DNA from: an archaeon
GTDB lineage: Archaea; Nanobdellota; Nanobdellia; Pacearchaeales; GW2011-AR1
Assembly (NCBI GenBank): GCA_027341315.1
Contig: DAIENA010000001.1
Coordinates: 1-38,872 of the forward strand
Reading direction: 5' to 3'
DNA length: 38,872 bases
Numbering within the stretch: position 1 is the stretch's first letter; the number at the start of each line of letters is the position of its first letter. The notes below the pieces were generated by a model that was given only the letters and a program-made list of their open reading frames with translations, had not been told where the DNA came from and searched no databases. Made by a program: the position numbers and the translations under genes. Positions 10,346 through 28,531 of this stretch are shown in pieces.

Positions 10346-10477
10346 ATTAATAACGGCTCCGTAGCTCGGCTCGCAAGCCCAGTTGCGGTTTCCATTTACG
10401 TTGCACAGATTTTGTGCAACTGAACATTGCTCGGCCTGGTCGACCAGTCTGAACAATTAATAACGGCTCCGTAGCTC
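10346..10477 (+). repeat. 22-bp perfect direct repeat (ATTAATAACGGCTCCGTAGCTC) at 10346-10367 and 10456-10477, duplicating the leader plus tRNA positions 1-13
   Basis: Read directly; the period is exactly 110 bp. The 88 bp between the copies contains a 7-bp/5-nt-loop hairpin (10401-10419), a 12-bp palindrome CTGGTCGACCAG (10436-10447), and a D-arm-like GCTCGGCCTGGTCGA. Confidence 0.9.
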
Positions 10478-10582
10478 AGCCTGGTCAGAGCACCGGACTT
10501 TTATGCACGACTTCGTCGTACGTTCTTCGCGAAGCGTCGCAAAGAAATCCGGGTGTCGAGGGTTCAAATCCCTTCGGGGCCA
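10465..10582 (+). tRNA. tRNA-Lys (anticodon TTT) with a 43-nt intron at the canonical 37/38 position
   Basis: Hand-folded. Acceptor GGCTCCG/CGGGGCC (one G-U pair), D-arm GCTC..GAGC, anticodon stem CCGGA/TCCGG, loop CTTTTA|intron|A, T-arm GAGGG-TTCAAAT-CCCTT, discriminator A, no encoded CCA. Intron 10504-10546: CTTT (10498-10501) pairs with AAAG (10541-10544), leaving 3-nt bulges TAT and AAA. This is a bulge-helix-bulge geometry. Confidence 0.85.
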
Positions 10583-11121: not shown

Positions 11122-11334
11122 ATGCATATTCTACAACCAAAGCACATTAAAATGAATGAAAAAGAAGTTGAAGAGCTTTTGGATAAATTAAATATCTCAA
11201 AAAGTCAGTTACCGAAAATTTTGGACGGTGATGTTGCGCTTCCGGAAGGTTGTGAAATCGGGGACGTCATAAAAATCGAGAGAAAAGATTCAGAGACCGG
11301 CGAATTAAATATTTATTTTAGGGTTGTTGTATAA
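11122..11334 (+). CDS. rpoH: DNA-directed RNA polymerase subunit H (Rpo5)
   Basis: MHILQPKHIKMNEKEVEELLDKLNISKSQLPKI...GDVIKIERKDSETGELNIYFRVVV has the RpoH pattern H-x-L-x-P-K-H...QLPKI...YR-V-V. Its stop overlaps the rpoB start (TAATG). The upstream part of the ORF-track frame has no plausible start codon. Confidence 0.8.
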   Translation: MHILQPKHIKMNEKEVEELLDKLNISKSQLPKILDGDVALPEGCEIGDVIKIERKDSETGELNIYFRVVV

Positions 11335-14300
11335 TGGTTGAGGGAAAAAATCATCTTGTTGTTAAGAAATATCTTGAGGACCACTCACTTGTTGAGTCTA
11401 ACATAATTTCTTATAATGAATTCATAAGTGAAAGAATGCAGGAAATTGTCGACGACATTTCTAATTCAATTGAACAGGACGAGGAAGAATTTAAAATTCA
11501 GCTTGGAAAAATTGAAGTCGGAAAGCCCGCGGTTATAGAGGCTGACGGAAGTACGTCGACGATTATGCCATACGAAGCAAGAATAAGAAATCTCACTTAC
11601 GCCGCGCCGATAAGTCTTGAACTTACTGTGAAAAAAGACGGACAGGTCGACTCCGAAGTTGTTGAGATTGGAAAAATTCCGGTGATGGTTAAAAGTAAAG
11701 CCTGCAACACATCAGGTTTTGACAGGGAAAAACTTATAGAAAATTATCATGACCCTCTTGATCCAGGAGGATATTTTATTATTAAGGGTAATGAAAGAGT
11801 TATGGTTATGGCCGAAGACCTTGCTGAAAATCAACCGTTCATAGAAGAAAATTCAAAGGGCCAGCTTGTTTTAAAATTATTTTCACTGAAAGGAACTTAC
11901 AGAATTCCGACGACGATAAAAGAGGCAAAAGACGGAATTTTTGAAACTTCATTTTCGAGATTTAAAGATATGCCGACGGTGATATTACTTAAGGCGTTGG
12001 GATTGACAAAAGAGTCGGATATTGCAAGATACATCGGAAAGGAAACTGACAGCGTTATTGTCAACCTTTATGAATTCGCAAACATTGCAACTGAAGAAGA
12101 CGCGATGATGTACATTGCCGAGAAAACAAATCTTCAGGGTACAAAAAAAGAAATTTTAGACAGAGTAAAGCAAAGAATTGATTCTTACCTTTTCCCCCAC
12201 ATCGGGCAGAACAAGGCGTCGCGAATGAAAAAAGCAGTCACGATTTGTAAACTTGTTAAACAATTTCTTTTGGCAAAAGAAGATACAACTCTTAGAACTG
12301 ATAAAGACCATTATGCAAATAAAAGAGTTCGACTTTCAGGAGATTTATTGACGACGCTTTTCAAAGTTAACCTTGGAATTTTAATACGAGACTTGCAATA
12401 TTCACTGCAGAAATCCCAGAAGAGAAAGAAATTTTTCTCAATTAAAGTTCTTGCAAAGTCAACTTTGTTTTCTCACAGAATTGAATCAGCGATTGCGACC
12501 GGTTCATGGACGGGGGAAAGAAGCGGGGTTACGCAGAACATGGATAAGACAAATTATCTTGCGACGATTTCACAGCTTCAAAGAGTGGCAAGCATGCTTG
12601 AGTCAGGCCAGGAAAATTTTAAAGCAAGAACTCTTCACCCGACGCACTTTGGAAGATTTTGCCCGATTGAAACTCCGGAAGGAACCGAAACGGGGCTCCG
12701 AAAAAATCTTGCGTTACTCAGTAAGGTGTCAACAAGAGTGGACCTTGACGAAGACAAATTTATAAAATATCTGGAGAAGTCCGGTCTTGACAAGGAATTG
12801 AATGAAGGTTCAGAAGTTTTTTTCAACGGAAACTATATTGGAAATGTTAAAGACTCTAAAGAGTTTTCAAATTTAATTAAAGAAAAAAGAAGAGGAGGAG
12901 AACTTCCGATAGAATTAAGCATTAACGAAAAGGAGGGTCTTCAGACTATTTTAATTTCAACTGAACCGGGAAGAGTTCTCAGGCCTTTAATTGTTATTGC
13001 CGACGGAGTTTCAAAATTAAAAAATGAACATCTTATCCAGCTTGAGCAGGGAAATTTAAAATGGATAGACCTCGTTAAATCCGGAATAATTGAATATATC
13101 GACGCTGCGGAGGAAGAAAGCGCGCTCGTTGCAATGAATTCGAACGAACTCACGACGGAACACACACATATGGAAGTAGATCCTGTTGCTTTTTTAGGGG
13201 TTGTTACAAGTATAACTCCGTATGTAAACCACAATTCATGTGCTAAATTAATTAAAGGAACAAAAAGTTTCAAGCAGTCACTTGGACTTTACGCGGCAAA
13301 TTATCTTTGTAGACTTGATACAGATGTTTCGGTATTACAGTATCCGCAAAAACCAATTGTAAGAAGTTTTGTTTATGACACTTTAAACACTTATCCTGCA
13401 GGTCAGAATCTCACCGTCGCTATTATGACGCACGAAGGGTATAACATGGAAGATGCTCTTGTTTTAAACAAGGGAAGTCTTCAGCGTGGCGTCGGAAGAA
13501 GCTTTTATTTTAGACCTTACTCTGCAATTGAAATGAATTACGCCGGAGGATTAAAAGACGAAATTGTAATTCCGGACAAAGACGTTTCGGGATACAAAAT
13601 GGAATCTCTTTACGGCTCTCTTGAAAACGACGGAATAATTTATCCGGAAGCAGATATTAACGAGGGGGAAGTTTTAATTGGTAAAACTTCGCCGCCGAAA
13701 TTTTTGAGTGAAGCAAGAGAAATTTCAGTCAGAACGAAAAAAGAGTCGAGCGTAACTTTAAGACAGGAAGAAAAAGGAATTGTGGAATCTGTTTTTGTAA
13801 CAATCGACGACGAGGGAAACAAAATCGTTCAGGTAAAAACAAGAGATTTAAGAATTCCGGAACTCGGAGATAAATATGCAACTCCGTACGGGCAGAAGGG
13901 AGTTATAGGCGCAATTATCGACGAGGAAGACGTTCCGTTCACGCAAAGCGGAGTAAGACCCGACGTTTTATTTAATCCGCACGGACTTCCGAGCCGTATG
14001 AGTGTAGGTTATTTACTTGAACTCTTGGCAGGAAAAGTCGGATGTCTTCGAGGAGAAACTGTCGACGGAACTGCCTTTGGCGGGGAAACAAAAAAAGATC
14101 TTGAAGAACAGCTTCAGAATTTAGGATTCAGATACGACGGAAAAGAAACAATGAGAAGCGGAGTTACAGGGAAGAAAATTGAATCCAAAATATTTTTAGG
14201 AAATCTTTATTATTTGAAACTTAAATATATGGTTGCAAATAAAATGCACGGAAGAGCGTCGGGAAAGATTGCTCTTTTGACAAGACAGCCAATTGAAGGT

Positions 14301-14597
14301 CGTTCACGTGGCGGTGCCTTAAGACTTGGTGAAATGGAGCAACAGGCGCTTGTCGCCCACGGTGCGTCGCTGTTATTAAAAGAAAGATACGATTCAGACA
14401 AGGTCGTTCTTCCGATTTGTTCAAAGTGCGGTTCGATAGGTATCGAGGACAAAATAAGAAAAAAGACGGTTTGTCCGGAATGTCATTCGGAAGAAATTGA
14501 ACCAATCGAAGTTTCGTACGCTTTCAAACTTTTGATTGAAGAACTTCAGGGACTTCACGTTCACACTAAATTTGAATTAAAAAATAAATACGAATAA
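11334..14597 (+). CDS. rpoB: DNA-directed RNA polymerase subunit B, unsplit (B'' and B' in one gene)
   Basis: 1087 aa in the canonical position after rpoH, with GYFIIKGNERV, MTHEGYNMEDA, GEMEQQALVAHGAS and a C-terminal zinc ribbon CSKCGS...CPEC. Confidence 0.95.
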   Translation: MVEGKNHLVVKKYLEDHSLVESNIISYNEFISERMQEIVDDISNSIEQDEEEFKIQLGKIEVGKPAVIEADGSTSTIMPYEARIRNLTYAAPISLELTVKKDGQVDSEVVEIGKIPVMVKSKACNTSGFDREKLIENYHDPLDPGGYFIIKGNERVMVMAEDLAENQPFIEENSKGQLVLKLFSLKGTYRIPTTIKEAKDGIFETSFSRFKDMPTVILLKALGLTKESDIARYIGKETDSVIVNLYEFANIATEEDAMMYIAEKTNLQGTKKEILDRVKQRIDSYLFPHIGQNKASRMKKAVTICKLVKQFLLAKEDTTLRTDKDHYANKRVRLSGDLLTTLFKVNLGILIRDLQYSLQKSQKRKKFFSIKVLAKSTLFSHRIESAIATGSWTGERSGVTQNMDKTNYLATISQLQRVASMLESGQENFKARTLHPTHFGRFCPIETPEGTETGLRKNLALLSKVSTRVDLDEDKFIKYLEKSGLDKELNEGSEVFFNGNYIGNVKDSKEFSNLIKEKRRGGELPIELSINEKEGLQTILISTEPGRVLRPLIVIADGVSKLKNEHLIQLEQGNLKWIDLVKSGIIEYIDAAEEESALVAMNSNELTTEHTHMEVDPVAFLGVVTSITPYVNHNSCAKLIKGTKSFKQSLGLYAANYLCRLDTDVSVLQYPQKPIVRSFVYDTLNTYPAGQNLTVAIMTHEGYNMEDALVLNKGSLQRGVGRSFYFRPYSAIEMNYAGGLKDEIVIPDKDVSGYKMESLYGSLENDGIIYPEADINEGEVLIGKTSPPKFLSEAREISVRTKKESSVTLRQEEKGIVESVFVTIDDEGNKIVQVKTRDLRIPELGDKYATPYGQKGVIGAIIDEEDVPFTQSGVRPDVLFNPHGLPSRMSVGYLLELLAGKVGCLRGETVDGTAFGGETKKDLEEQLQNLGFRYDGKETMRSGVTGKKIESKIFLGNLYYLKLKYMVANKMHGRASGKIALLTRQPIEGRSRGGALRLGEMEQQALVAHGASLLLKERYDSDKVVLPICSKCGSIGIEDKIRKKTVCPECHSEEIEPIEVSYAFKLLIEELQGLHVHTKFELKNKYE

Positions 14598-14598
14598 A

Positions 14599-14913
14599 AT
14601 GACAGTAAAATTAATCCAGTTCGAAAAACCAGAAGAGTATGATTTAATTAAAAATTACCTTCTGGAAAAATATAAAGATGAAAAAGATTTGGTTTCACAT
14701 GTGAATGATTCAAGAGCTTATTTTGGTCTCAAGGAATATGAAGTTTCTGCCAACCGTGAAGAAAAGAGAGTAATTCTTTTCGAATTTAAAAAAGGTGGAG
14801 AAAAAATTAATAATTTAGAAAAAGAATTAAAAGGGATACTTGGTAAAAATGAATTAAGTGAGAAAACGAGGGAAGATTTTCAGAAAGTTCTGGGGGAAAC
14901 AATTAAAAATTAA
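14599..14913 (+). CDS. Small hypothetical protein sORF-1 (104 aa), paralogue of sORF-3
   Basis: Starts 1 nt after the rpoB stop (TAA-A-ATG). Shares YFG.KEYEVSAN..KRVI and GEKINNLEKEL with 15171-15473. Confidence 0.65.
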   Translation: MTVKLIQFEKPEEYDLIKNYLLEKYKDEKDLVSHVNDSRAYFGLKEYEVSANREEKRVILFEFKKGGEKINNLEKELKGILGKNELSEKTREDFQKVLGETIKN

Positions 14914-14914
14914 A

Positions 14915-15169
14915 ATGAAAACAGAAATAAAATTTAAAGATGAAAATGAGTTTGAAATAATGGGAATGCAAATAGCAAATTATTTTGAAAAGGTGCTGGG
15001 AGTTTACACTCCGGGAGAATTAAAAAGTCATTACAGTATTAAAAATGAAAATCCTGTTGAAATAGAGATCTATCACAAGGAAAGAACTATTTTTATCGAC
15101 GGGAAAACAAATCATAAGAAAAGCTTTCTTGAAAAAATTGCAAAAGAACCATCGGAGGTTTTAGTTTAA
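14915..15169 (+). CDS. Small hypothetical protein sORF-2 (84 aa)
   Basis: ATG 1 nt after the sORF-1 stop; the ORF-track start at 14858 would overlap sORF-1. The N-terminus EIKFKDENEFEIMGMQIANYFEK resembles the N-termini of the other small ORFs. Confidence 0.55.
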   Translation: MKTEIKFKDENEFEIMGMQIANYFEKVLGVYTPGELKSHYSIKNENPVEIEIYHKERTIFIDGKTNHKKSFLEKIAKEPSEVLV

Positions 15170-15170
15170 A

Positions 15171-15473
15171 ATGAACACTATAACAAATTTAGAGAAATTA
15201 AATATGACGGAAATAAAAATAATTCCCATAGAAACATACAGCCAATACGAGGCAGTCAGAGATTATCTTTTAAAACTGCATTTAGATGAAAAAAACGGAA
15301 CTTTGTTTAGAGGTAGAAATAAAACTTATTTTGGAAATGAAAAATATGAAATCTCTGCAAACATGGATAAAAAAAGAGTAATTATAATCCAAGAAAACGA
15401 GGATGGAGAAAAGATTAATAATTTAGAAAAAGAATTAAACAATGTAGTTGGAGGTTTGAATAATACAAAATGA
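15171..15473 (+). CDS. Small hypothetical protein sORF-3 (100 aa), paralogue of sORF-1
   Basis: Starts 1 nt after the sORF-2 stop. The alignment to sORF-1 is obvious by eye. An internal ATG (MTEIKII) aligns with the sORF-1 start and is an alternative start. Confidence 0.65.
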   Translation: MNTITNLEKLNMTEIKIIPIETYSQYEAVRDYLLKLHLDEKNGTLFRGRNKTYFGNEKYEISANMDKKRVIIIQENEDGEKINNLEKELNNVVGGLNNTK

Positions 15474-15733
15474 CAACAGTAGAACAATATGTCGCGTATG
15501 GAAAAATAAAGTTGAGAGAATTGGAAACAGAATTATTATTTGAATTTTCCCAAGTTAAGGCAAATTTAAAACAGTTGGAAGAAGGAAACGAAAATAGTGA
15601 ATTAGGAATTCATTGTCTTAGATTTCGAAGGATGTCTTTAGAGTTGGGATATTATGACGTGGATACTTCAAAGCTGGATAGGGAATATAAATCACTTTTG
15701 CCTCAAATAAATAAATACATTAAAGCAAGTTAA
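15470..15733 (+). CDS. Small hypothetical protein sORF-4 (87 aa, probably helical)
   Basis: ATGA overlap with the sORF-3 stop. Its own stop lies 1 nt before the rpoA ATG. No similarity seen to sORF-1, -2 or -3. Confidence 0.55.
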   Translation: MTTVEQYVAYGKIKLRELETELLFEFSQVKANLKQLEEGNENSELGIHCLRFRRMSLELGYYDVDTSKLDREYKSLLPQINKYIKAS

Positions 15734-15734
15734 A

Positions 15735-18700
15735 ATGAAAAAAACAATATCAAAAAAAATCGGAGAAATTAAGTTTTCACTTCTTAGCCCTGAAGAAATC
15801 AAGAAAATTTCAGTTGCGAAAATTGTGACGCCGGAACTTTACGATATTGACGGCTATCCCGTCGACGGTGGATTAATGGATTTAAGACTCGGAGCAATTG
15901 ACCCGGGAGTCAGATGCCGAACCTGCGGAGGGAAAATAAAAGAATGTCTTGGACACCCCGGAAGTATAGACCTTGCTAAACCAATAATTCATTTAAAATA
16001 TGTTCCGGTTATAGAACTTGGACTTAGATGCTTCTGTCAGGAATGCGGGAAACTTATGCTTGACGACAAAGACCTGAAAAAATATACTCCAAGCCAGAGA
16101 GCAAAAAAAGCAAAAGATGCAAAAAAATGCCCTCATTGTCAGGCGACTCAGGAAAAAGTAAAACTTGACAAACCAACGAGTTTTTACCGGGGGAAAACGA
16201 GAATTTTCCCGACGGAAATACGTGAGAGTCTTGTTAGAATCCCGGACGAGGAACTTAAAAAAATTGCAATCGACCCGACGACATGCAGAGTTGAATGGTC
16301 TGTTTTGAATTCATTGATTGTCCCCCCCGTAACCGTGAGACCGTCTATAATTCTTGAAACAGGGGAAAGAAGTGAAGATGACCTTACTCATAAATTGTCC
16401 GATATAATCAGAGCAAATCAAAGACTTTGGGAAAACCTAAACGCCGGAGCCCCTGAAGTTATTATTGAAGACCTTTGGGATTTATTACAATACCACGTCA
16501 CGACATTTTTTGACAACACCGTCGCCAGAGTTCCGCCAGCAAGACACAGAAGCGGTCAGCCGTTAAAAACAATTGAAGAAAGAATAAAAGGAAAAGAAGG
16601 AAGAATAAGAAAAAATATTGCAGGTAAAAGAGTTAATTATTCGGGTAGAACAGTTATTAGCCCCGACCCAAATATTAATATAAATGAAGTTGGAGTTCCT
16701 TATGAAATCGCAAAAGTTGTGACTGTTGCCGAGACTGTTAATGATTTTAATAAAGAAAAACTTTCAGAATTAATTAAAAGCGGGGAAAACTGGCCTGGAG
16801 CAAATTATGTAATAAGACCCGACGGACGAAAGAAAAAAATTACTCCGGAACTTCAGGAAGAAATTATTGAAGAATTAAAACCCGGTTACCAAGTTGAGAG
16901 ACATTTACAAAACGGGGATATCGTTTTATTCAACAGACACCCCTCACTTCACAGGGCAAGTTTAATGGCGCATTATGTTCGGGTTTTACCGGGAAGAACT
17001 TTTCGGGTTCACCCTGCTGCCGCTAATCCGTATAACGCCGACTTCGACGGTGACGAGATGAATATTCACTCTCCGCAGACTGAAGAAGCAAGAGCGGAAG
17101 CAAAAATACTTCTTGACGTTAAACAAAATTTAATTTCTCCGAAAAACAATACTAACTTAATCGGTTGTATTGTCGACGCTGTAACCGGAAATTATATGCT
17201 TGGTAAAAGAGATTTCACAAGAGAGGATGCAAATCAACTTTTGTATAAATCAGGAATTGAAGCTGAATTCAGTGGAAAGACAGTTTCAGGAAAAGAGATT
17301 TTTTCAATGGTGCTTCCTGAAATTGATTTCTCAAATAATTCTCTTGACATAAAGAAAGGAAAAGTCACTAAAGGTGAAATTGATAAATCAACTTTTGGAG
17401 ATGAAGAAGGAGAACTTGTAAAAATAATTGACGCAAAATACGGACGAAGCGCCGCTTTTGAAACTATAAGAAAGGCATTTAACCTTGGAAAAAATTATCT
17501 TTCTGAAACAGGAATCACTATTTCCGTCGAGGATTTTGATTTGGATGAAGAAACTATTGAAGAAAGTGAAAAAATAATTAAGGCGACGGAAAAGAAGGCT
17601 GAGGAAATAATCAAATCTTACGAGGACGGAACACTTGAACTTATTCCGAGTAAATCTCTTGAAGAATCACGGGAGATTCACTTATTGAAGGTTCTTAATG
17701 AAGCGAGAACAAAAATCGGTGCGATGGTTAAAGAAAGATTCCCTGAAACAAATCCGGTTGACCACATGATAAAGTCCGGTGGCGGGGGAAACATTTTGAA
17801 TATTACACAAATGGCGTCGAGTGTTGGTCAGCAGGCTTTTGCCGGCGGAAGAATCGACATCGGGTACACTCAAAGAACTCTTCCATTTTTCAAGAGAGGA
17901 GATTTGTCGCCGCGTTCGAGAGGATTTATCAGAAATGGTTTTATAAGAGGGCTTAAACCCGACGAATTTTTCTTCCAGTCAATTACAGGAAGAGATTCAA
18001 TTATGGACACTGGTTTACGAACTCCTAAGTCGGGATATTTGTATAGACGTCTAGCTAACGCGCTTCAGGACATGAGAGTCGAATACGACGGAACAATAAG
18101 AGATTCAGGAAACAATATAATTCAATTCCAGTACGGCGTCGACGGATATGACGTTTCGAAAATCCACCTGAAAGAAAAAATTTCTCCGGGTGAAGCGGTC
18201 GGACTCGTGACGGCGCAGTCTTTCGGTGAAGCTTCGACGCAGATGGTCCTTAACACGTTCCACATGGCCGGTGTTGCTGAAATGCAGGTTACAACCGGTT
18301 TACCCAGAATAATCGAAATTTTTGATGCAAGGAAAAAACCTTCTTCTCCGAAAATGGAAATTTATCTTGAGAAAGATTATGACAATGAAGAAGAAGCAAA
18401 ATCTTTTGCAGAGAGAATAAAAGAAGTTACATTAAAGGAAGTCTCTACGGAAATTAATCTTGACTTTGGAGAAAAAGTAATTACAATTAATCTAGACAAA
18501 GATGAACTTAAAAAAACTCATGCAACTCCAAATAAGGTTGCCGAGAGACTTAATGAATTAGGATTTAAAGTTGAAAATAAAGGAAACTCGATTGTCCTTA
18601 ACGCTTCGGATTATCAATTTAAAGAAATTTATCAACTTAAAGAAAAATTAAAGAAATCAATTATTTCAGGAATTAAGGGAATTGAACAGATTTTAATTTC

Positions 18701-19223
18701 TAAGAGAGGAAAAGATTTTATTGTAATCACCCTTGGAACAAATTTGGAAGAAATGATGAAGATGAAAGAGGTTGACAAAAAAAGAATTATATCAAATGAT
18801 TTACATGAAGTTGCACGGGTTCTTGGAATTGAAGTTGCAAGACAATTAATAATAAATGAAATTAAGGAAGTTCTTGATTCCCAGGGTCTTGACATTCATG
18901 TTAAACATCTTGAGTTAATTGCCGACGCTATGACAAACACCGGAGAAGTTAAGGGAGTTACGAGAATGGGAATTATCGCCCAGAAGGCGTCTATACTTGC
19001 AAGAGCAACTTTTGAAACCCCTGTAAGGCAGTTTGTGAATGCAATTATTAAAGGCTCGTCAGATAAACTTGAAAGTGTTATTGAAAACGTCATACTTAAT
19101 CAGCCGGTTCCCGTCGGTACAGGGCTTCCCGGTCTTCTCGTGAACGTTATCGGTTCTTTGGCCGGAGATGACAAACACAAAAAAACTGCCGAGTCGAAAA
19201 TTGTCGAAGAAGCAAATAAATAA
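15735..19223 (+). CDS. rpoA: DNA-directed RNA polymerase subunit A, single unsplit gene (A' and A'' equivalents fused)
   Basis: One 1162-aa ORF carries the zinc-binding N-terminus, NADFDGDEMN (catalytic Mg site), the bridge helix GRDSIMDTGLRTPKSGYLYRRL, and the A''-type trigger-loop region PGEAVGLVTAQSFGEASTQMVLNTFHMAGV. There is no stop or frame change between them. Confidence 0.9.
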   Translation: MKKTISKKIGEIKFSLLSPEEIKKISVAKIVTPELYDIDGYPVDGGLMDLRLGAIDPGVRCRTCGGKIKECLGHPGSIDLAKPIIHLKYVPVIELGLRCFCQECGKLMLDDKDLKKYTPSQRAKKAKDAKKCPHCQATQEKVKLDKPTSFYRGKTRIFPTEIRESLVRIPDEELKKIAIDPTTCRVEWSVLNSLIVPPVTVRPSIILETGERSEDDLTHKLSDIIRANQRLWENLNAGAPEVIIEDLWDLLQYHVTTFFDNTVARVPPARHRSGQPLKTIEERIKGKEGRIRKNIAGKRVNYSGRTVISPDPNININEVGVPYEIAKVVTVAETVNDFNKEKLSELIKSGENWPGANYVIRPDGRKKKITPELQEEIIEELKPGYQVERHLQNGDIVLFNRHPSLHRASLMAHYVRVLPGRTFRVHPAAANPYNADFDGDEMNIHSPQTEEARAEAKILLDVKQNLISPKNNTNLIGCIVDAVTGNYMLGKRDFTREDANQLLYKSGIEAEFSGKTVSGKEIFSMVLPEIDFSNNSLDIKKGKVTKGEIDKSTFGDEEGELVKIIDAKYGRSAAFETIRKAFNLGKNYLSETGITISVEDFDLDEETIEESEKIIKATEKKAEEIIKSYEDGTLELIPSKSLEESREIHLLKVLNEARTKIGAMVKERFPETNPVDHMIKSGGGGNILNITQMASSVGQQAFAGGRIDIGYTQRTLPFFKRGDLSPRSRGFIRNGFIRGLKPDEFFFQSITGRDSIMDTGLRTPKSGYLYRRLANALQDMRVEYDGTIRDSGNNIIQFQYGVDGYDVSKIHLKEKISPGEAVGLVTAQSFGEASTQMVLNTFHMAGVAEMQVTTGLPRIIEIFDARKKPSSPKMEIYLEKDYDNEEEAKSFAERIKEVTLKEVSTEINLDFGEKVITINLDKDELKKTHATPNKVAERLNELGFKVENKGNSIVLNASDYQFKEIYQLKEKLKKSIISGIKGIEQILISKRGKDFIVITLGTNLEEMMKMKEVDKKRIISNDLHEVARVLGIEVARQLIINEIKEVLDSQGLDIHVKHLELIADAMTNTGEVKGVTRMGIIAQKASILARATFETPVRQFVNAIIKGSSDKLESVIENVILNQPVPVGTGLPGLLVNVIGSLAGDDKHKKTAESKIVEEANK

Positions 19224-19299: not shown

Positions 19300-20550
19300 A
19301 TGAAAAACTTAGTGTGTGATAATTCAAGAGAAGACTTTCCTGTAGATTATATCGGTGGAAAAGGAAAAGGATTACTAAAATTAAAAAATCTGGAAAAAGA
19401 ACTTAGACAGGAATATTTTTGGAGAATAAAAAAAGTGGAAATTCCAAATTTTTTTATAATTCCTGTGGGTTATGATTTAAATTTTAAAGAAAATTTATTT
19501 AAGTTGGCCGATTCCTTAGGACCTAAAAAACTTGCTGTGCGTTCGTCGTCTCCATATGAAGACGCGGAAAATAATTCTTTTGACGGCATTTTTGAAAGCC
19601 ATCTTGATGTTTCAAGAGACGACCTTCTTGAAGCAATTAATAGTGTAAAAAATTCAGCATTGGGGAAAAAAGCTGTGGAATATTCAAAAGAATTCAATGT
19701 TCCTATTGACAACAAAATGGCAGTTATTGTGCAAAAAATGGTGTCGAGGGAAAATACAGGAATAATTTACTCAAAGTTTCCGGCTATTTCTGATGTAACA
19801 AGAATTATTTCAAATTTTGGAAATAAAACTGAAAATATTCTTTTTGAAAGAAAAACTTTAGATTATTATGATGAAAGTGGCAATGAAATCAAAGAGAAGA
19901 AAATTGTTTCTGGCAGGAGAATAATCCAAGACGGGAATTTGGGCCATATTGATTTTTTTAGTGGATTTTCTGAACTTTCTCATTTTGTTGAAAAAAAATT
20001 TGGTTACCCTGTGAGAATTGAATATTCTTATGACGGAGAAAAAGAGGAATTAAATTTATTGCAAGCACGTTCTATAGAGAAGGGAAAAAGTTTGGAAAAA
20101 ATTATAATGCCCGAACTTGAAGCTGGAAATTTAATTGCCGGAACTTATGGAGTAAATGGAATTGGAGACGTCACACTTCCGTTAGTTAATATAATTAATT
20201 CTAAAGAAGATGGAAAAGAACATCATATCTCAGAAAATGAAATTGAAAAGTTAGACAAGAAATATAAAAATGGTTATATTCTTCTTGCACAATATTTAAA
20301 ATTTGATGATAATTATATTGATCCTATAACCCCCCATAAAAAAGCCGCCATAATTGGGAGTCAATTTTTGGGAGGAGATGATAGCCCCGACCATGATTGG
20401 GATATAGCAAGAAAAAAAGGATTGCTTTATCTTTTAATTCCGGATTTTTATTTTGAATTTTCCGGAGACAGGAAATCACCATTGAAAACTGGAGATATGG
20501 TGAGAATTATCAGCGACGGGGTTAAAGGAATGGTTTACAAAGTTGATTAA
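19300..20550 (+). CDS. PEP/pyruvate-binding (PPDK_N, ATP-grasp) domain protein with a C-terminal PEP-utilising-enzyme mobile (swivel) domain; no third domain
   Basis: IGGKGKGLLKL, LAVRSSSPYEDAENNSFDGIFES and MAVIVQKMV are typical of the PEP synthase/PPDK N-terminal domain. The C-terminus LGGDDSPDHDWDIARKKG...GDMVRIISDGVKGMVYKV resembles the phospho-His swivel domain (GGxxSHxAIxAR...G..V.VDG..G.V). Confidence 0.6.
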   Translation: MKNLVCDNSREDFPVDYIGGKGKGLLKLKNLEKELRQEYFWRIKKVEIPNFFIIPVGYDLNFKENLFKLADSLGPKKLAVRSSSPYEDAENNSFDGIFESHLDVSRDDLLEAINSVKNSALGKKAVEYSKEFNVPIDNKMAVIVQKMVSRENTGIIYSKFPAISDVTRIISNFGNKTENILFERKTLDYYDESGNEIKEKKIVSGRRIIQDGNLGHIDFFSGFSELSHFVEKKFGYPVRIEYSYDGEKEELNLLQARSIEKGKSLEKIIMPELEAGNLIAGTYGVNGIGDVTLPLVNIINSKEDGKEHHISENEIEKLDKKYKNGYILLAQYLKFDDNYIDPITPHKKAAIIGSQFLGGDDSPDHDWDIARKKGLLYLLIPDFYFEFSGDRKSPLKTGDMVRIISDGVKGMVYKVD

Positions 20551-20619: not shown

Positions 20620-21036
20620 ATGGTCAACACAATTGATATGCAGGACTTAAGAAGACTCGCTCTCTTTAGAAAAATTACAAGACTTGAAACAAGATATTGT
20701 TTTAGTTATAATGAGATATTAATGTTTTGTGTTCCAAAAAGAGAAGTTTCAATCGCTCTTGGAAGAAACGGAGAAAATCTTAAAAGAATGTCGGATATAT
20801 TAAAAAAAAGAGTTAGAATTATTCCGCTTCCAAACGGAATTAACGACGCGAAATCGTTTATACAAGCCGTTATTGCTCCAGTCGGATTTACCGGAATCGA
20901 AATCACGCCTGATGAAATCGTCGTCAACGCCGGCTCCGAAAATAAGGCGGCGCTTCTTGGACGAAACAAACGGCGATTCCTTGAAATGAAAAAAATCGTT
21001 AAAGATTTTTTTAGACTTGAATACAGAATTATTTAA
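20620..21036 (+). CDS. nusA: Archaeal NusA-like transcription termination/antitermination factor (two KH domains)
   Basis: 138 aa in the typical position between rpoA and rps12, with KH-like GRNGENLKRMSDIL and LLGRNKRRFLEMKKIV. Confidence 0.8.
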   Translation: MVNTIDMQDLRRLALFRKITRLETRYCFSYNEILMFCVPKREVSIALGRNGENLKRMSDILKKRVRIIPLPNGINDAKSFIQAVIAPVGFTGIEITPDEIVVNAGSENKAALLGRNKRRFLEMKKIVKDFFRLEYRII

Positions 21037-21361
21037 CTTTTTTTTCGAGAACCGAATTAATTACGTCTGAATATTCTTTATAAGATTCTTTTATACAATT
21101 TTTTACAGATTCTGGATTGTGAGGAAATTCTTGAATAAATTCTGATTCGGTAATAAATCCGTAATATTTTTTATTTTTGTTTCTATCGCTTACGTCTATG
21201 ACGTCGACGTAACACTCGTCTACATTAACATTTTTTACAATGGCGGGATGATAATCAAACTCAATTTCTCTCGCAACAACTTCCCAAACCAAATCTCCGG
21301 GCTTTATACCTTCAAACCTTGCTTTTTGCTTTTGATAATTGTTTTTGGTTAATAGTTCCAT
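21029..21361 (-). CDS. Hypothetical protein (110 aa), opposite strand, convergent with nusA (8-nt overlap)
   Basis: Intact ORF. PGDLVWEVVAREIEFDYHPAIV resembles the first strands of Tudor/PWWP-type SH3-like barrels (weak, by eye). Confidence 0.45.
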   Translation of the reverse strand: MELLTKNNYQKQKARFEGIKPGDLVWEVVAREIEFDYHPAIVKNVNVDECYVDVIDVSDRNKNKKYYGFITESEFIQEFPHNPESVKNCIKESYKEYSDVINSVLEKKVK

Positions 21362-21470
21362 AAATATAATTTTCGATTAAATTATTAAATATTTTTACAA
21401 AGAAAAGTATATTTCAAAAAACGAAATTTATTAAAACTCTTTAGTTCTTTAGTCTTTATATGGGTTTTAA

Positions 21471-21782
21471 ATGAAAAAAATTATCAACAATTATTCTTCA
21501 CAGGTAATTTACCGCGGAGAAAAAAAGGAACTTGAAAATATTTTGAAGATTCTCTGCCAAAATTTAGGCACTGGTTTTGAAGAGCAAATATCAGTTTTTT
21601 CAAAGGAAGATAAAAAAATAGAAAGTCCAGACCAAAGAATATATTACAATCTTGAAAGAATTCTTTATATTTCAAACTCATCGAAGCCGAAATTTTTATT
21701 TCCGATAATTCTAAAAATTTCCAAAAAGGCCGATGAGAAATTTTCTGAAAAATACGGGAAAATTGACATGATTGAGAAATAA
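21471..21782 (+). CDS. Hypothetical protein (103 aa)
   Basis: ORF only; no motif recognised. Confidence 0.4.
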   Translation: MKKIINNYSSQVIYRGEKKELENILKILCQNLGTGFEEQISVFSKEDKKIESPDQRIYYNLERILYISNSSKPKFLFPIILKISKKADEKFSEKYGKIDMIEK

Positions 21783-22297: not shown

Positions 22298-22597
22298 ATG
22301 GAAAAAACTTTTGAATTCAGTGATGAAAAATATTATGGACAGGTTATTCCTTATATGGAAAAAAAATTTCCCGGCTTAACAGGGAGTAAACTGGAAGATT
22401 TTTATTATGTTCCTGCTGGAGCCAGTGTGGGTCACGATTTAAAAGACGGAACTAAGGCTCTTATTGGTAAAGCAATACATTCCCGCGTTCAGGTAAAAGT
22501 TTTCTCCGACGACGAAGAGTTATTTAAAGAGTTAGGGGAATTAGAAAAACTTACGTCGACGACCGGACGAAACGGCGGGACGGGGACGGGAAATTAA
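22298..22597 (+). CDS. Small hypothetical protein sORF-A (99 aa), paralogue of sORF-B
   Basis: Starts 1 nt after the rps12 stop. The N-terminus TFEFSDEKYYGQVIPYMEKKF matches sORF-B EFQFLREAYYRQVIPLLEEYF. Gly/Thr-rich C-terminal tail. Confidence 0.6.
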   Translation: MEKTFEFSDEKYYGQVIPYMEKKFPGLTGSKLEDFYYVPAGASVGHDLKDGTKALIGKAIHSRVQVKVFSDDEELFKELGELEKLTSTTGRNGGTGTGN

Positions 22598-22907
22598 AAT
22601 GACAGAAGAGTTTCAATTTTTAAGAGAAGCGTATTATAGGCAAGTTATTCCTTTATTGGAAGAATATTTTTCTGATAAAGAACTTGGAAAGAAAATTTTA
22701 GCAGATAAGTCTTTACACAATTTAGATAATCTTGCAATGATTTATAATGATTTTTTTAATGAAAATAAGGGAGAAATATTAATAATTACTCCTTCAAAAA
22801 TATCTCCTGAAAAATTTGTTTTGGTGGTTACCTCGAAAGATGAAAAATTAATGAAAGGATTAGAAAAATTATCAATGGGGGAAGTAGGAAATTAAAATGA
22901 CAGAAGA
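22589..22907 (+). repeat. Perfect 21-bp direct repeat GGAAATTAAAATGACAGAAGA at 22589-22609 and 22887-22907, bracketing sORF-B
   Basis: Read directly. The copies are exactly 298 bp apart. Each spans a stop codon, the 1-nt spacer and the first four codons (MTEE) of the next gene. Confidence 0.9.
22599..22895 (+). CDS. Small hypothetical protein sORF-B (98 aa), paralogue of sORF-A
   Basis: Starts 1 nt after the sORF-A stop and ends 1 nt before the rps7 ATG. Begins MTEE, as rps7 does. Confidence 0.6.
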   Translation: MTEEFQFLREAYYRQVIPLLEEYFSDKELGKKILADKSLHNLDNLAMIYNDFFNENKGEILIITPSKISPEKFVLVVTSKDEKLMKGLEKLSMGEVGN

Positions 22908-24059: not shown

Positions 24060-24107
24060 TTCTGGTTTTTTCGAAAAATATATATAGAAAAATAACTTGC
24101 TTTCACC

Positions 24108-24395
24108 ATGTATGATGAATTGGTAAAAGAAATGCTGAACAAGGGAAAGAAACAGTCTCTTGAAACAATTGATGGGATAGAAAGAATTCTTAAAAGTCAA
24201 TATGGAAGTATTGAGGGAAATGGGGTTCTAAAACCGGACAAGAACTTAAATGAGAATTATAATCTTTTAATAAATGCCCTCGGAAATTATAAAAAATCAA
24301 TAATTAATTTTTGGAATTCGCAAAAGAAAAAAATATCAGGACTTGGCATTCTTGAAACCGTCGTTTCAGAAAATTCCAAAAAAAGAAAAAAATAA
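24108..24395 (+). CDS. Hypothetical protein (95 aa)
   Basis: ORF only. Confidence 0.4.
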   Translation: MYDELVKEMLNKGKKQSLETIDGIERILKSQYGSIEGNGVLKPDKNLNENYNLLINALGNYKKSIINFWNSQKKKISGLGILETVVSENSKKRKK

Positions 24396-24415
24396 AACCA
24401 ATTCACTGTGTTAAT

Positions 24416-24940
24416 CTAAAATTTAAATTCCTCGCCACCTTGTTCCCATTCTTTCCTTATCTTTTCAGTTAAAAAATCCTTTGAAACTCTTCCGCTCCAC
24501 TCGTCGCTTCCTTTTTTTCTGTATGGAATGTAAAAATCCGGATCGTTATAAAAATTATAAGATTTTAAAACAGGATATTTTGTGTCTGTATTTTTTCTGA
24601 AAAATTTTGGTTCGCCAACTAATCCTTTTTGAATAAATACGTTAAGATAATAATTATAAGACTTTGTTGCCATTTCATCGACAAACGGATTAACCACCTC
24701 TTCTATCCATAATTTTTTATTTTTGTCCAAGAAATCAATTGACTTGTAAGTTTGCTCCCCATAAGTTTTTGTGATTATTTCTTGGTAAATATCTTTCCAA
24801 AATTCATGACGGCATCCCCCAAACATAATTAATCCATCGTTCGCGTCTGCGGATTCAACAAAATTTACATAAGCGTCAATTTCAAATTTATTCTCAAGAC
24901 CCGTTCTTTCGCTGATCCTTTTTTTTATTTTTTCATCCAT
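24416..24940 (-). CDS. Hypothetical protein (174 aa)
   Basis: Intact minus-strand ORF between rps7 and the EF-2 gene. No motif recognised. Confidence 0.5.
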   Translation of the reverse strand: MDEKIKKRISERTGLENKFEIDAYVNFVESADANDGLIMFGGCRHEFWKDIYQEIITKTYGEQTYKSIDFLDKNKKLWIEEVVNPFVDEMATKSYNYYLNVFIQKGLVGEPKFFRKNTDTKYPVLKSYNFYNDPDFYIPYRKKGSDEWSGRVSKDFLTEKIRKEWEQGGEEFKF

Positions 24941-24997
24941 ATCGCATAAGCGGGTTCATTATTATTAAATATTATTGTCCTCAAAACTACAAAAAGT

Positions 24998-27709: not shown

Positions 27710-28531
27710 ATGAATAATTCAAAAAATCCGGTTAAGGAGACTCTAAAGAAGAGATATCCAAACATGAATGAATTTCTTTTTGAAACTTCATATTTTTTAT
27801 TGAAGCATATAATAAATGAAAAAGGGTTAAATGAAATTCTTTTGAAAAATGGAAAATTTTACGGGATTGATTTTGCAAATGCTATACTTAATTATCTAAA
27901 CATTAATTATAATCTGCATGGAAAAATTCCGGATGAAGGGAGGTATATATTCACTTCTAATCATCCATCAAATGGAATTGATGGAAATATACTTATGAGT
28001 GCGGTCGGAGGTAAAAACAAAAACATCAAATTTTTTGTCGCAGATTTTATTTCTGAATATGAAAATTATAAAGATATTTTTTTACCAACTGACTTTTCAG
28101 GAAAAAAAGGAAGAGAAAACACAAAAAAAGTCATAAATGCCTTAGAATCAAATTCACAAATTATAATATTTCCTGCCGGAGATATTTCAGTAAAAATTAA
28201 AGATAAAATAAGAGACATTCCTTGAAATTCAAGTGTAGTGAATTGGTCCAAAAAGTATGAACGGGATATTGTCCCAGTTTATTTTAATGGGAAAAATTCA
28301 AATTTATTTTACTTAGTTTCAAGGCTGAGACTGTTTTTTAAAATAAAAGGAAATCTTGAAAAACTATTTATGGTCAGAGAAATAACATCTCAGCGTGGAA
28401 AAACATTTGATATTGTTTTTGGAGAACCTATTCCTTATCAAAATTTTACAAATGAAAAAACTTCAAAAGAATGGGCTGACCAAATTTATAATAAAGTTTA
28501 TTCGCTTGAGGAAAAATTAATAAGAATATAA
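27710..28531 (+). pseudogene. PlsC/'putative hemolysin'-type acyltransferase interrupted by one in-frame TGA (28223-28225)
   Basis: The two ORF-track pieces (27710-28225 and 28238-28531) are in the same frame. The N-terminal piece has the HX4D motif (NHPSNGID) and IIIFPAGD. The C-terminal piece continues the same domain (RDIVPVYFNGKNSNLFY). Only the TGA and four sense codons separate them. Confidence 0.6.

Follow-up and report, generated by a model that had tools for sequence, protein, structure and literature searches.

Strain-variable small-protein genes between rpoB and rpoA of a Pacearchaeales archaeon are probably accessory passengers of a core operon

Few archaeal gene junctions are as conserved as that of rpoB and rpoA'. 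In contig DAIENA010000001.1 of a Pacearchaeales archaeon (assembly GCA_027341315.1), the two genes are separated by 1137 nt that hold four small open reading frames (ORFs), here called sORF1 to sORF4. What are these genes, and why do they lie between the two catalytic subunit genes of RNA polymerase (RNAP)? We analyzed the whole 38,872-nt stretch of this contig (the window); coordinates are those of the window unless a comparison locus (L number) is named. We consider it probable that the four ORFs form a strain-variable tandem array of accessory small-protein genes that rides the core operon, is dispensable and not RNAP-specific, and belongs to an order-wide pool of ORFans.

The upstream anchor of the slot is rpoB (11334..14597, + strand), an unsplit gene of 1087 aa with Rpb2 domains 1-7, and the downstream anchor is rpoA (15735..19223, +). 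Between them and on the same strand lie sORF1 (14599..14913, 104 aa), sORF2 (14915..15169, 84 aa from its ATG), sORF3 (15171..15473, 100 aa), and sORF4 (15470..15733, 87 aa). The four ORFs had been reported with these lengths in a first-pass annotation, and the coordinates agree with both the ORF list and the raw sequence. The 1-nt gaps and the ATGA overlap that it described can be read directly in the sequence: TAA-A-ATG is present at the rpoB/sORF1, sORF1/sORF2, sORF2/sORF3 and sORF4/rpoA junctions, and sORF3 and sORF4 overlap by ATGA. The rpoB-sORF1 stop-start junction (14595..14601, +; TAA-A-ATG(A)) contains the first copy of a repeated AAAATGA motif, with further junction copies at 14912, 15168, 15467, and 15732. 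Alternative starts were noted for two of the genes. The ORF listing extends the sORF2 frame upstream to a GTG at 14858, and sORF3 has a second in-frame ATG at 15204, which would give a protein of 89 aa and leave the first 11 codons (15171-15203) as a leader. The ATG at 15171 is favored as the sORF3 start because translational coupling needs very short spacing. With regard to the downstream anchor, archaeal RpoA is usually split into A' and A''. In the window A' and A'' are contained in one 1162-aa ORF with Rpb1 domains 1-5, and the gene is unsplit also in relatives (for example, L092 6239-9727).

To the question of whether these are genes at all, coding statistics gave a clear answer. The four ORFs of at least 80 aa covered 99.7% of the 1137-nt gap. 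In a shuffle control (n = 5000), the maximum coverage was 27%, and only 0.9% of the shuffled sequences gave even one ORF of that length. At the base composition of the array ∼10% of random codons are stops, and the chance of 375 consecutive sense codons is ∼1e-17. GC content at the first codon position (GC1) was higher than GC2 and GC3 within every one of the four ORFs, and an Rfam scan of the array region found no RNA family. In a comparison of the window with L001, pN/pS (non-synonymous over synonymous polymorphism) was ∼0.23 for sORF1, based on four synonymous and four non-synonymous changes, and 0.04 for rpoB; the sORF1 value fits protein-level constraint, with the small counts kept in mind. 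By these measures sORF1-4 look like genuine protein genes, beyond chance. The array contains 28.5% GC (GC3 21-25%), against 38-39% in the flanks (GC3 31-34%), and this low GC gives it an accessory-like appearance in composition. The same four-ORF array, 99.4-99.95% identical, was found in the independent assemblies GCA_027332365.1, GCA_021825165.1, and ERZ27237538, and partially in ERZ27237563. The contig is therefore not chimeric at 14.6-15.7 kb, a possibility that the first-pass annotation had raised.

The content of the slot differs among strains. We located the exact proteins in public assemblies, with rpoB and rpoA flanks ∼98-99.9% identical, and found four configurations: rpoB-1-2-3-4-rpoA (the window, L006, L009, L010), rpoB-x-1-2-3-4-rpoA (L004, L005), rpoB-a-1'-b-rpoA (L001-L003, L099), and rpoB-a-1'-2-rpoA (L098). 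ORFa encodes a probably helical protein of 83 aa and ORFb one of 118 aa whose C-terminus is hydrophobic; both are ORFans. Sample ERZ27237587 holds two of the configurations, x-1-2-3-4 (L005) and a-1'-b (L099), which shows the polymorphism to be segregating in one and the same community. In the closest species, L011 (94% RpoB identity), the rpoB-rpoA gap is 1 nt and there is no insert; its RpoB and RpoA are near-identical in length to those of the window and align over their full length with few gaps. sORF1-4 are dispensable and are shuffled in modular fashion among strains. The L011 alignment also led us to reject the idea that the sORFs are pieces split off from RpoA or RpoB, since this species is insert-free and yet both subunits align full length. 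All breakpoints between configurations fall inside the common junction motif AAAATGA, which is extended to TTAAAATGAA at sORF2/sORF3 and sORF4/rpoA. Whole-gene deletions, starting from a hypothetical x/a-1-2-3-4-b array, would suffice to give all four configurations.

A recent sweep or transfer of the array was also considered, in view of 0 synonymous single-nucleotide polymorphisms (SNPs) in the array versus 20-28 per flanking gene in L006. The idea was dropped because the strain SNPs are clustered everywhere and the SNP-poor tract reaches into rpoB and rpoA. Between 11142 and 21044, SNPs of the window versus L006, L009, and L010 are strongly clustered (for example, 13316-13614, 16763-16796, 18728-19091) with long SNP-free tracts between the clusters, the pattern of a homologous-recombination mosaic.

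Is the interrupted junction a peculiarity of this species? An RpoB C-terminus scan with one genome per species placed the source of the window among the Pacearchaeota/Nanoarchaeota (DPANN) and yielded 80 related Pacearchaeota-like loci; one 80-locus junction survey counts three variant strains of the window's species among its loci. The rpoB-rpoA gap is bimodal, with -4 to ∼30 nt in about half of the species and 150-1367 nt in 38 of the 80 loci (largest ∼800 nt outside the window's species). The premise of the first-pass annotation that rpoB is normally followed directly by rpoA' thus applies to about half of the related species; it does not apply to the rest, which had been missed. Insert presence and absence changed at least 25 times on a rough neighbor-joining tree of 77 taxa. 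The inserts consist of co-oriented ORFs, most of which begin 1 nt past the rpoB stop, and a GAATAA-A-ATG context at this stop is conserved across the order, whether a small ORF or rpoA comes next.

To classify the inserted ORFs, we performed an iterative hidden Markov model (HMM) search over all ORFs of the rpoB-rpoA loci from the 80 related species. It defined one family (family A) of seven ORFs, namely sORF1, sORF2, sORF3, the junction ORFs of L016 and L017, one ORF of L020 and, weakly, ORFx of L004. sORF1 and sORF3 share 43% identity over 80 aa (E = 2e-21), and the paralogy of this pair noticed earlier is upheld; the first-pass annotation overlooked that sORF2 is of the same family. sORF2 is a divergent member with 88-90% probability in leave-one-out profile comparison (E∼1e-6, 74-75 columns), and its closest relative is the L020 ORF (L020:15287-15517; 33% identity over 75 aa, E = 4e-8). 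sORF1 matched the L016 ORF with E = 5e-4. The match of ORFx to the family A profile was weak (59%, E = 9e-5) and its membership is suggestive. sORF4 is an ORFan outside the family: it gave no match to the family A profile and showed no similarity to sORF2 or ORFa.

The family A pattern spans ∼75 columns and consists of beta1, a helix (xxYxxxxxYLxxY), a beta-meander, and a C-terminal helix (LNxLEKxL). It is present in sORF1, sORF2, sORF3, and the L016, L017, and L020 ORFs, and this fold pattern is kept at 15-40% identity across species and junctions. No conserved polar or catalytic motif was seen in the alignment. All four window proteins are mildly acidic (pI∼5.9), and across the family pI ranges from 5.3 to 9.5 with variable net charge. 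The sequences suggest small binding modules rather than enzymes. Two local similarities were noticed at the nucleotide level. sORF1 14802-14826 and sORF3 15410-15434 are identical in 24 of 25 nt, encoding GEKINNLEKE, in surrounding paralogous DNA of ∼76% identity; gene conversion or strong constraint may explain this stretch. The 5' leader of sORF3 (15180-15206, ATAACAAATTTAGAGAAATTAAATATG) is ∼85% identical to the 5' end of ORFa (L001 1081-1107). sORF3 and ORFa are unrelated beyond this leader, and each has a second in-frame ATG at the leader end. The common leader could mark a mosaic junction or act as a functional element.

Searches of sORF1-4 against Pfam, NCBIfam, PADLOC, and PHROG gave sub-threshold noise only. 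No toxin, antitoxin or defense domain was supported (Pfam, NCBIfam, PADLOC), and no HNH, GIY-YIG, LAGLIDADG, or similar nuclease domain was found (Pfam, PHROG). A reading of sORF2 as PADLOC PDC-S35 is unsupported (14.8 bits, E = 0.0039, 43 of 245 positions only). The family profile searched against PDB sequences gave nothing below E = 0.1 and no TATA-binding protein (TBP) even at E≤10. The earlier statement that none of the ORFs has a known domain therefore holds for Pfam, NCBIfam, PADLOC, PHROG, and PDB, all without a significant match. In word-indexed searches of 5.8 billion clustered proteins, only the sORFs themselves and near-identical strain copies were genuine matches. The sORF1/sORF3 profile, run exhaustively as an HMM against 1.84 billion representatives, likewise gave only strain copies as genuine matches, and none of the sources consulted has a name for the proteins. 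Two extra matches from the large searches were long repetitive proteins aligned in 7-13 stretches, and these were judged to be compositional. Viral contigs contained no relatives of sORF1/3, sORF2, or sORF4. A metagenome scan with a two-sequence alignment found one new locus only, again at rpoB|rpoA.

AlphaFold2 (AF2) modeled sORF1 from a four-sequence multiple sequence alignment with a mean pLDDT of 80 and a pTM of 0.70. The model has the order beta1-alpha1-beta2-beta3-beta4-beta5-alpha2, followed by a low-confidence C-terminal helix. Foldseek searches against PDB and BFVD found nothing at E≤1e-3 for either the sORF1 or the sORF4 model. The top matches of sORF1 are mutually consistent: phosphoglucomutase C-terminal domain, RNase HIII N-domain, KA1, and AlkA N-domain, with TM-scores of 0.44-0.52 and E-values of 0.01-0.5 (best 0.011) for a model built on only four sequences. 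We take all of these domains to belong to the TBP-like fold class. Family A is accordingly described here as a predicted single alpha/beta domain of ∼80 aa with beta-alpha-beta4-alpha topology in this class, which would be a resemblance and not homology. The predicted order of elements is what family A has in common with these stand-alone or accessory TBP-like domains; it differs from them in having no sequence similarity and no Foldseek match at E≤1e-3. TBP itself is a saddle of two tandem repeats, whereas the family A model is one repeat of ∼80 aa. Membership in the TBP family was rejected because of the missing Pfam TBP match, the missing PDB TBP sequence match, and the single repeat. sORF4 was modeled as a three-helix protein with a pLDDT of 91 and has no structural neighbors by Foldseek.

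Small ORFs of this kind are not confined to one junction. Besides the window, family A is found at the rpoB|rpoA slot in L016, L017, and L092, and the L020 member lies between the genes of ribosomal proteins S12 and S7, where it has an ATGA overlap with the S12 stop. Other insert content at rpoB|rpoA includes a type common to L014 and L015, many singletons, and a 'KRTIEL' type whose relation to family A is borderline (55%, E = 1.2e-4). The insert ORFs of other species had no Pfam match, and Pfam and PHROG gave no nuclease domain for junction ORFs outside the window. The rpoA|nusA, nusA|S12, S12|S7, and S7|EF2 (elongation factor 2) junctions are also variably expanded in the ∼80 species. Across the gene cluster, 175 junction ORFs are co-oriented and 23 are not, and 129 of the 198 are BLAST singletons.

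Two further insert types were noted at rpoB|rpoA. A Cys-rich small ORF type recurs in L026, L029, L046, L048, L067, L068, L070, L076, L081, and L086. This type, with the approximate motif C[PE]x4-6C ... Cx5-7CxY, is without a match in Pfam and could be a metal-binding mini-protein. The 137-nt gap of the close relative L012 (6672-6808) contains only a 19-codon ORF, MEEVESKYKKFNKWAEDYP up to its stop, whose product is similar to the N-terminal strand and helix of the family A proteins. This ORF may be what remains of a decayed family member.

How would such an array be expressed and remodeled? The 1-nt and -4-nt spacings are most naturally read as signs of co-transcription and translational coupling. 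The sORFs would be co-transcribed within the rpoH-rpoB-rpoA operon, as the junctions leave no room for separate promoters. Each sORF would re-use the ancestral rpoB-stop/rpoA-start signal (TAA-A-ATG or ATGA), and translation would pass by termination-reinitiation from gene to gene and finally onto rpoA. Termination-reinitiation works only with overlaps or very short spacers and breaks down at ∼20 nt (PMC6728339, PMC10666635). The array resembles the coupled genes described in these papers in its one ATGA overlap and its otherwise very short spacers. Coupling usually occurs at -4 or -1; the sORF array differs in being mainly +1 (TAA-A-ATG) and serial through five junctions. Oligo-T tracts as archaeal terminators were uninformative, with T5+ runs equally common inside rpoB, rpoA, and the array.

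Growth of the array would have occurred by tandem duplication and then divergence. Remodeling would proceed by whole-gene insertions and deletions through recombination or slippage between the repeated (T)TAAAATGA junctions. We propose that, since rpoA would be translated through coupling, events that break the register are lost; they would be filtered by selection for uninterrupted rpoA coupling, and therefore no dedicated recombinase would be needed. As to the role of the proteins, we favor small binding modules that are accessory and possibly conflict-related over dedicated RNAP subunits.

Several points weigh against regarding the array as accessory cargo. Family A is present at rpoB|rpoA in at least four lineages (window, L016/L092, L017/L091), and a real functional link to RNAP could account for this. 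Subunits of one heteromeric complex are overrepresented among tightly coupled gene pairs (PMC10666635), and the experiments of that work used a spacing other than the +1 of the array. What is said above on co-transcription, coupling, and protein function is inference. The strain-level SNP counts are tiny, and the junction-ORF survey was made around one gene cluster only.

The first rival is that the sORFs encode lineage-specific RNAP-associated factors (subunits, assembly chaperones, or regulators) that coupling would keep at a fixed ratio to RpoB and RpoA, comparable in their lineage restriction to Rpo13 of Sulfolobales. We hold this to be unlikely. The genes do lie at coupling distances between the two catalytic subunit genes, family A occupies exactly the same slot in L016, L017, and L092, the TBP-like fold class includes nucleic-acid-binding domains, and closely spaced pairs are enriched for heteromeric-complex subunits (PMC10666635). 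However, an RNAP factor is hard to reconcile with four gene complements among nearly identical strains, some of which lack sORF2-4 or sORF3-4, or with the absence of the insert in L011, where RpoB and RpoA are alignable over full length, and in about half of the 80 related species. The linkage is not confined to transcription genes, as the L020 family A member at S12|S7 indicates, and unrelated ORFans occupy the rpoB|rpoA slot in other species. The variable charge of the family (pI 5.3-9.5), the mild acidity of the window proteins, and the lack of a conserved polar or catalytic motif in the alignment also count against it. The distributions of Rpo13 and RpoG are lineage-restricted (PMC9258230). 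Rpo13 (Sulfolobales) and Rpo8/RpoG (Crenarchaeota) are similar to the sORFs in being small, narrow-clade proteins tied to the archaeal transcription machinery. Rpo13 and Rpo8 are clade-wide and physically in the enzyme, whereas the sORFs are strain-variable, are missing from the sister species, and are also represented by relatives at a junction of ribosomal-protein genes. Of the roles that the first-pass annotation had offered, passenger or accessory genes using an essential operon is favored by the evidence; RNAP-associated or assembly factors fared poorly in view of the strain variation, L011, the S12|S7 member, and the unrelated junction ORFans.

A bolder version of the accessory-gene reading, which we put forward tentatively and think unlikely as a whole, is a recombinase-independent cassette system. 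(T)TAAAATGA would serve both as coupling signal and as recombination microhomology, and a pool of small proteins, including the family with the predicted TBP-like fold, would be duplicated, deleted, and moved among core-operon joints and strains. The products could then be dosage-locked modulators of RNAP or ribosome in symbiont-host or virus conflicts.

Could the genes instead be actively mobile or selfish cassettes (addiction, homing, or integron-like) that target the stop-start junctions of essential operons? The patchy distribution with at least 25 gains or losses, the modular shuffling with breakpoints in a common junction motif, the GC content below that of the flanks, and the occurrence of the same families at different junctions are in line with this idea. 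On the other side, library scans found no integrase, nuclease, toxin, or antitoxin domain in any cassette or neighbor, the 1-nt junctions are too short for attC-like sites, and a search of viral contigs turned up no relatives. Deletions from one longer array suffice, and selection for rpoA coupling would explain the precise junctions. We judge active mobility quite improbable.

Like integron cassette arrays, the sORF array consists of co-oriented, promoterless, mostly ORFan small cassettes expressed from upstream, with content that varies among close strains. Integrons have an integrase and attC sites; in the sORF array the 1-nt or 4-nt-overlap junctions leave no room for attC and no integrase is present among the window genes. 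Unlike integrons, the sORF array also lies inside an essential operon whose downstream gene would need read-through and reinitiation. Phage morons and free-standing homing-endonuclease genes are likewise dispensable ORFs between conserved co-transcribed genes with patchy occurrence in close relatives; in phage T4, mobE is a free-standing homing-endonuclease gene between nrdA and nrdB. The sORF array differs from these in having no nuclease domain and no promoter or terminator of its own, in its location in a cellular DPANN chromosome, and in that no viral relatives were found.

Another explanation is that the ORFs are translated spacers without function, kept open since a premature stop would uncouple rpoA. 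Their ORFan status and dispensability agree with this, and the AT-rich composition is compatible with relaxed constraint. Yet the AF2 models are confident and well packed, the family A fold pattern has persisted across species and junctions in spite of low identity, and pN/pS is below 1, if on small counts. Deletion as in L011 came at no apparent cost, so there would be nothing to maintain. We consider the spacer explanation very improbable. An artefact can be set aside: the array recurs in at least four independent assemblies, so that a chimeric contig is excluded, the shuffle test excludes ORFs that arose by chance in non-coding DNA, and the Rfam scan found no RNA family.

The evidence points away from new RNAP subunits and toward the accessory array. 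Accessory ORFans in flexible genomic spots are already known; unusual here are the location at a conserved junction, the serial +1 stop-start spacing, the modular shuffling among strains, and a new family with a predicted TBP-like fold. The literature that we searched contained no description of this arrangement. In one DPANN order the rpoB-rpoA' junction is a permissive, fast-evolving slot, and it offers a natural system for the birth, duplication, and loss of ORFans under the constraint of coupling to a downstream essential gene. Family A adjoins both RNAP and ribosomal genes and is a candidate modulator of transcription or translation in reduced symbionts. Even if the proteins are inert passengers, core operons are found to carry strain-variable cargo, which calls for caution in synteny-based annotation and marker-gene binning of DPANN genomes.

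Downstream in the window, a coupled pair of paralogous ORFans between S12 and S7 is analogous to the rpoB|rpoA array (22298-22597, 99 aa, and 22599-22895, 98 aa, both +). Both downstream junctions of the pair carry an identical 21-nt sequence, GGAAATTAAAATGACAGAAGA, and the second ORF starts with MTEE, as S7 does. The sequence suggests that the pair arose by offset tandem duplication. Outside the family, these two ORFs came closest to the family A profile, with weak similarity limited to the 32 N-terminal columns. The pair is stable across strains, except for length variants of 99-104 aa of the first ORF.

Other neighboring regions also differ between relatives. A 416-aa PPDK_N gene (phosphoenolpyruvate-utilizing enzyme, N-terminal; 19300-20550) lies between rpoA and a KH-domain nusA-like gene (20620-21036); it is absent from this position in L011, and its GC3 of 0.22 is low, like that of the small ORFs. 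A 103-aa ORFan at 21471-21782 belongs to a nine-member family at nusA|S12 in other species and has no Pfam match. A minus-strand 110-aa ORFan (21029-21361) has a BLAST relative at S7|EF2 in L072 (13839-14129, +), in operon orientation. In a comparison with GCA_027332365.1 (L006), an indel at 21045-21762 removes the 110-aa ORF and most of the 103-aa ORF; it is a deletion in L006, because the last 16 nt of the 103-aa ORF remain there. At 24064-24958, L006 has 17 nt in place of 895 nt that contain a 95-aa ORF and, on the minus strand, a 174-aa ORF. Strain-level indels of small ORFs are thus located also at nusA|S12 and ahead of EF2. Just upstream of the rpoH operon, Rfam detected a 118-nt tRNA (10465-10582, 57 bits) that was not reported by ARAGORN and presumably contains an intron. 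Finally, the consecutive ORFs 27710-28225 and 28238-28531 match positions 3-163 and 177-262 of 266 in the Pfam acyltransferase family PF19576, and this gene is split or frameshifted.

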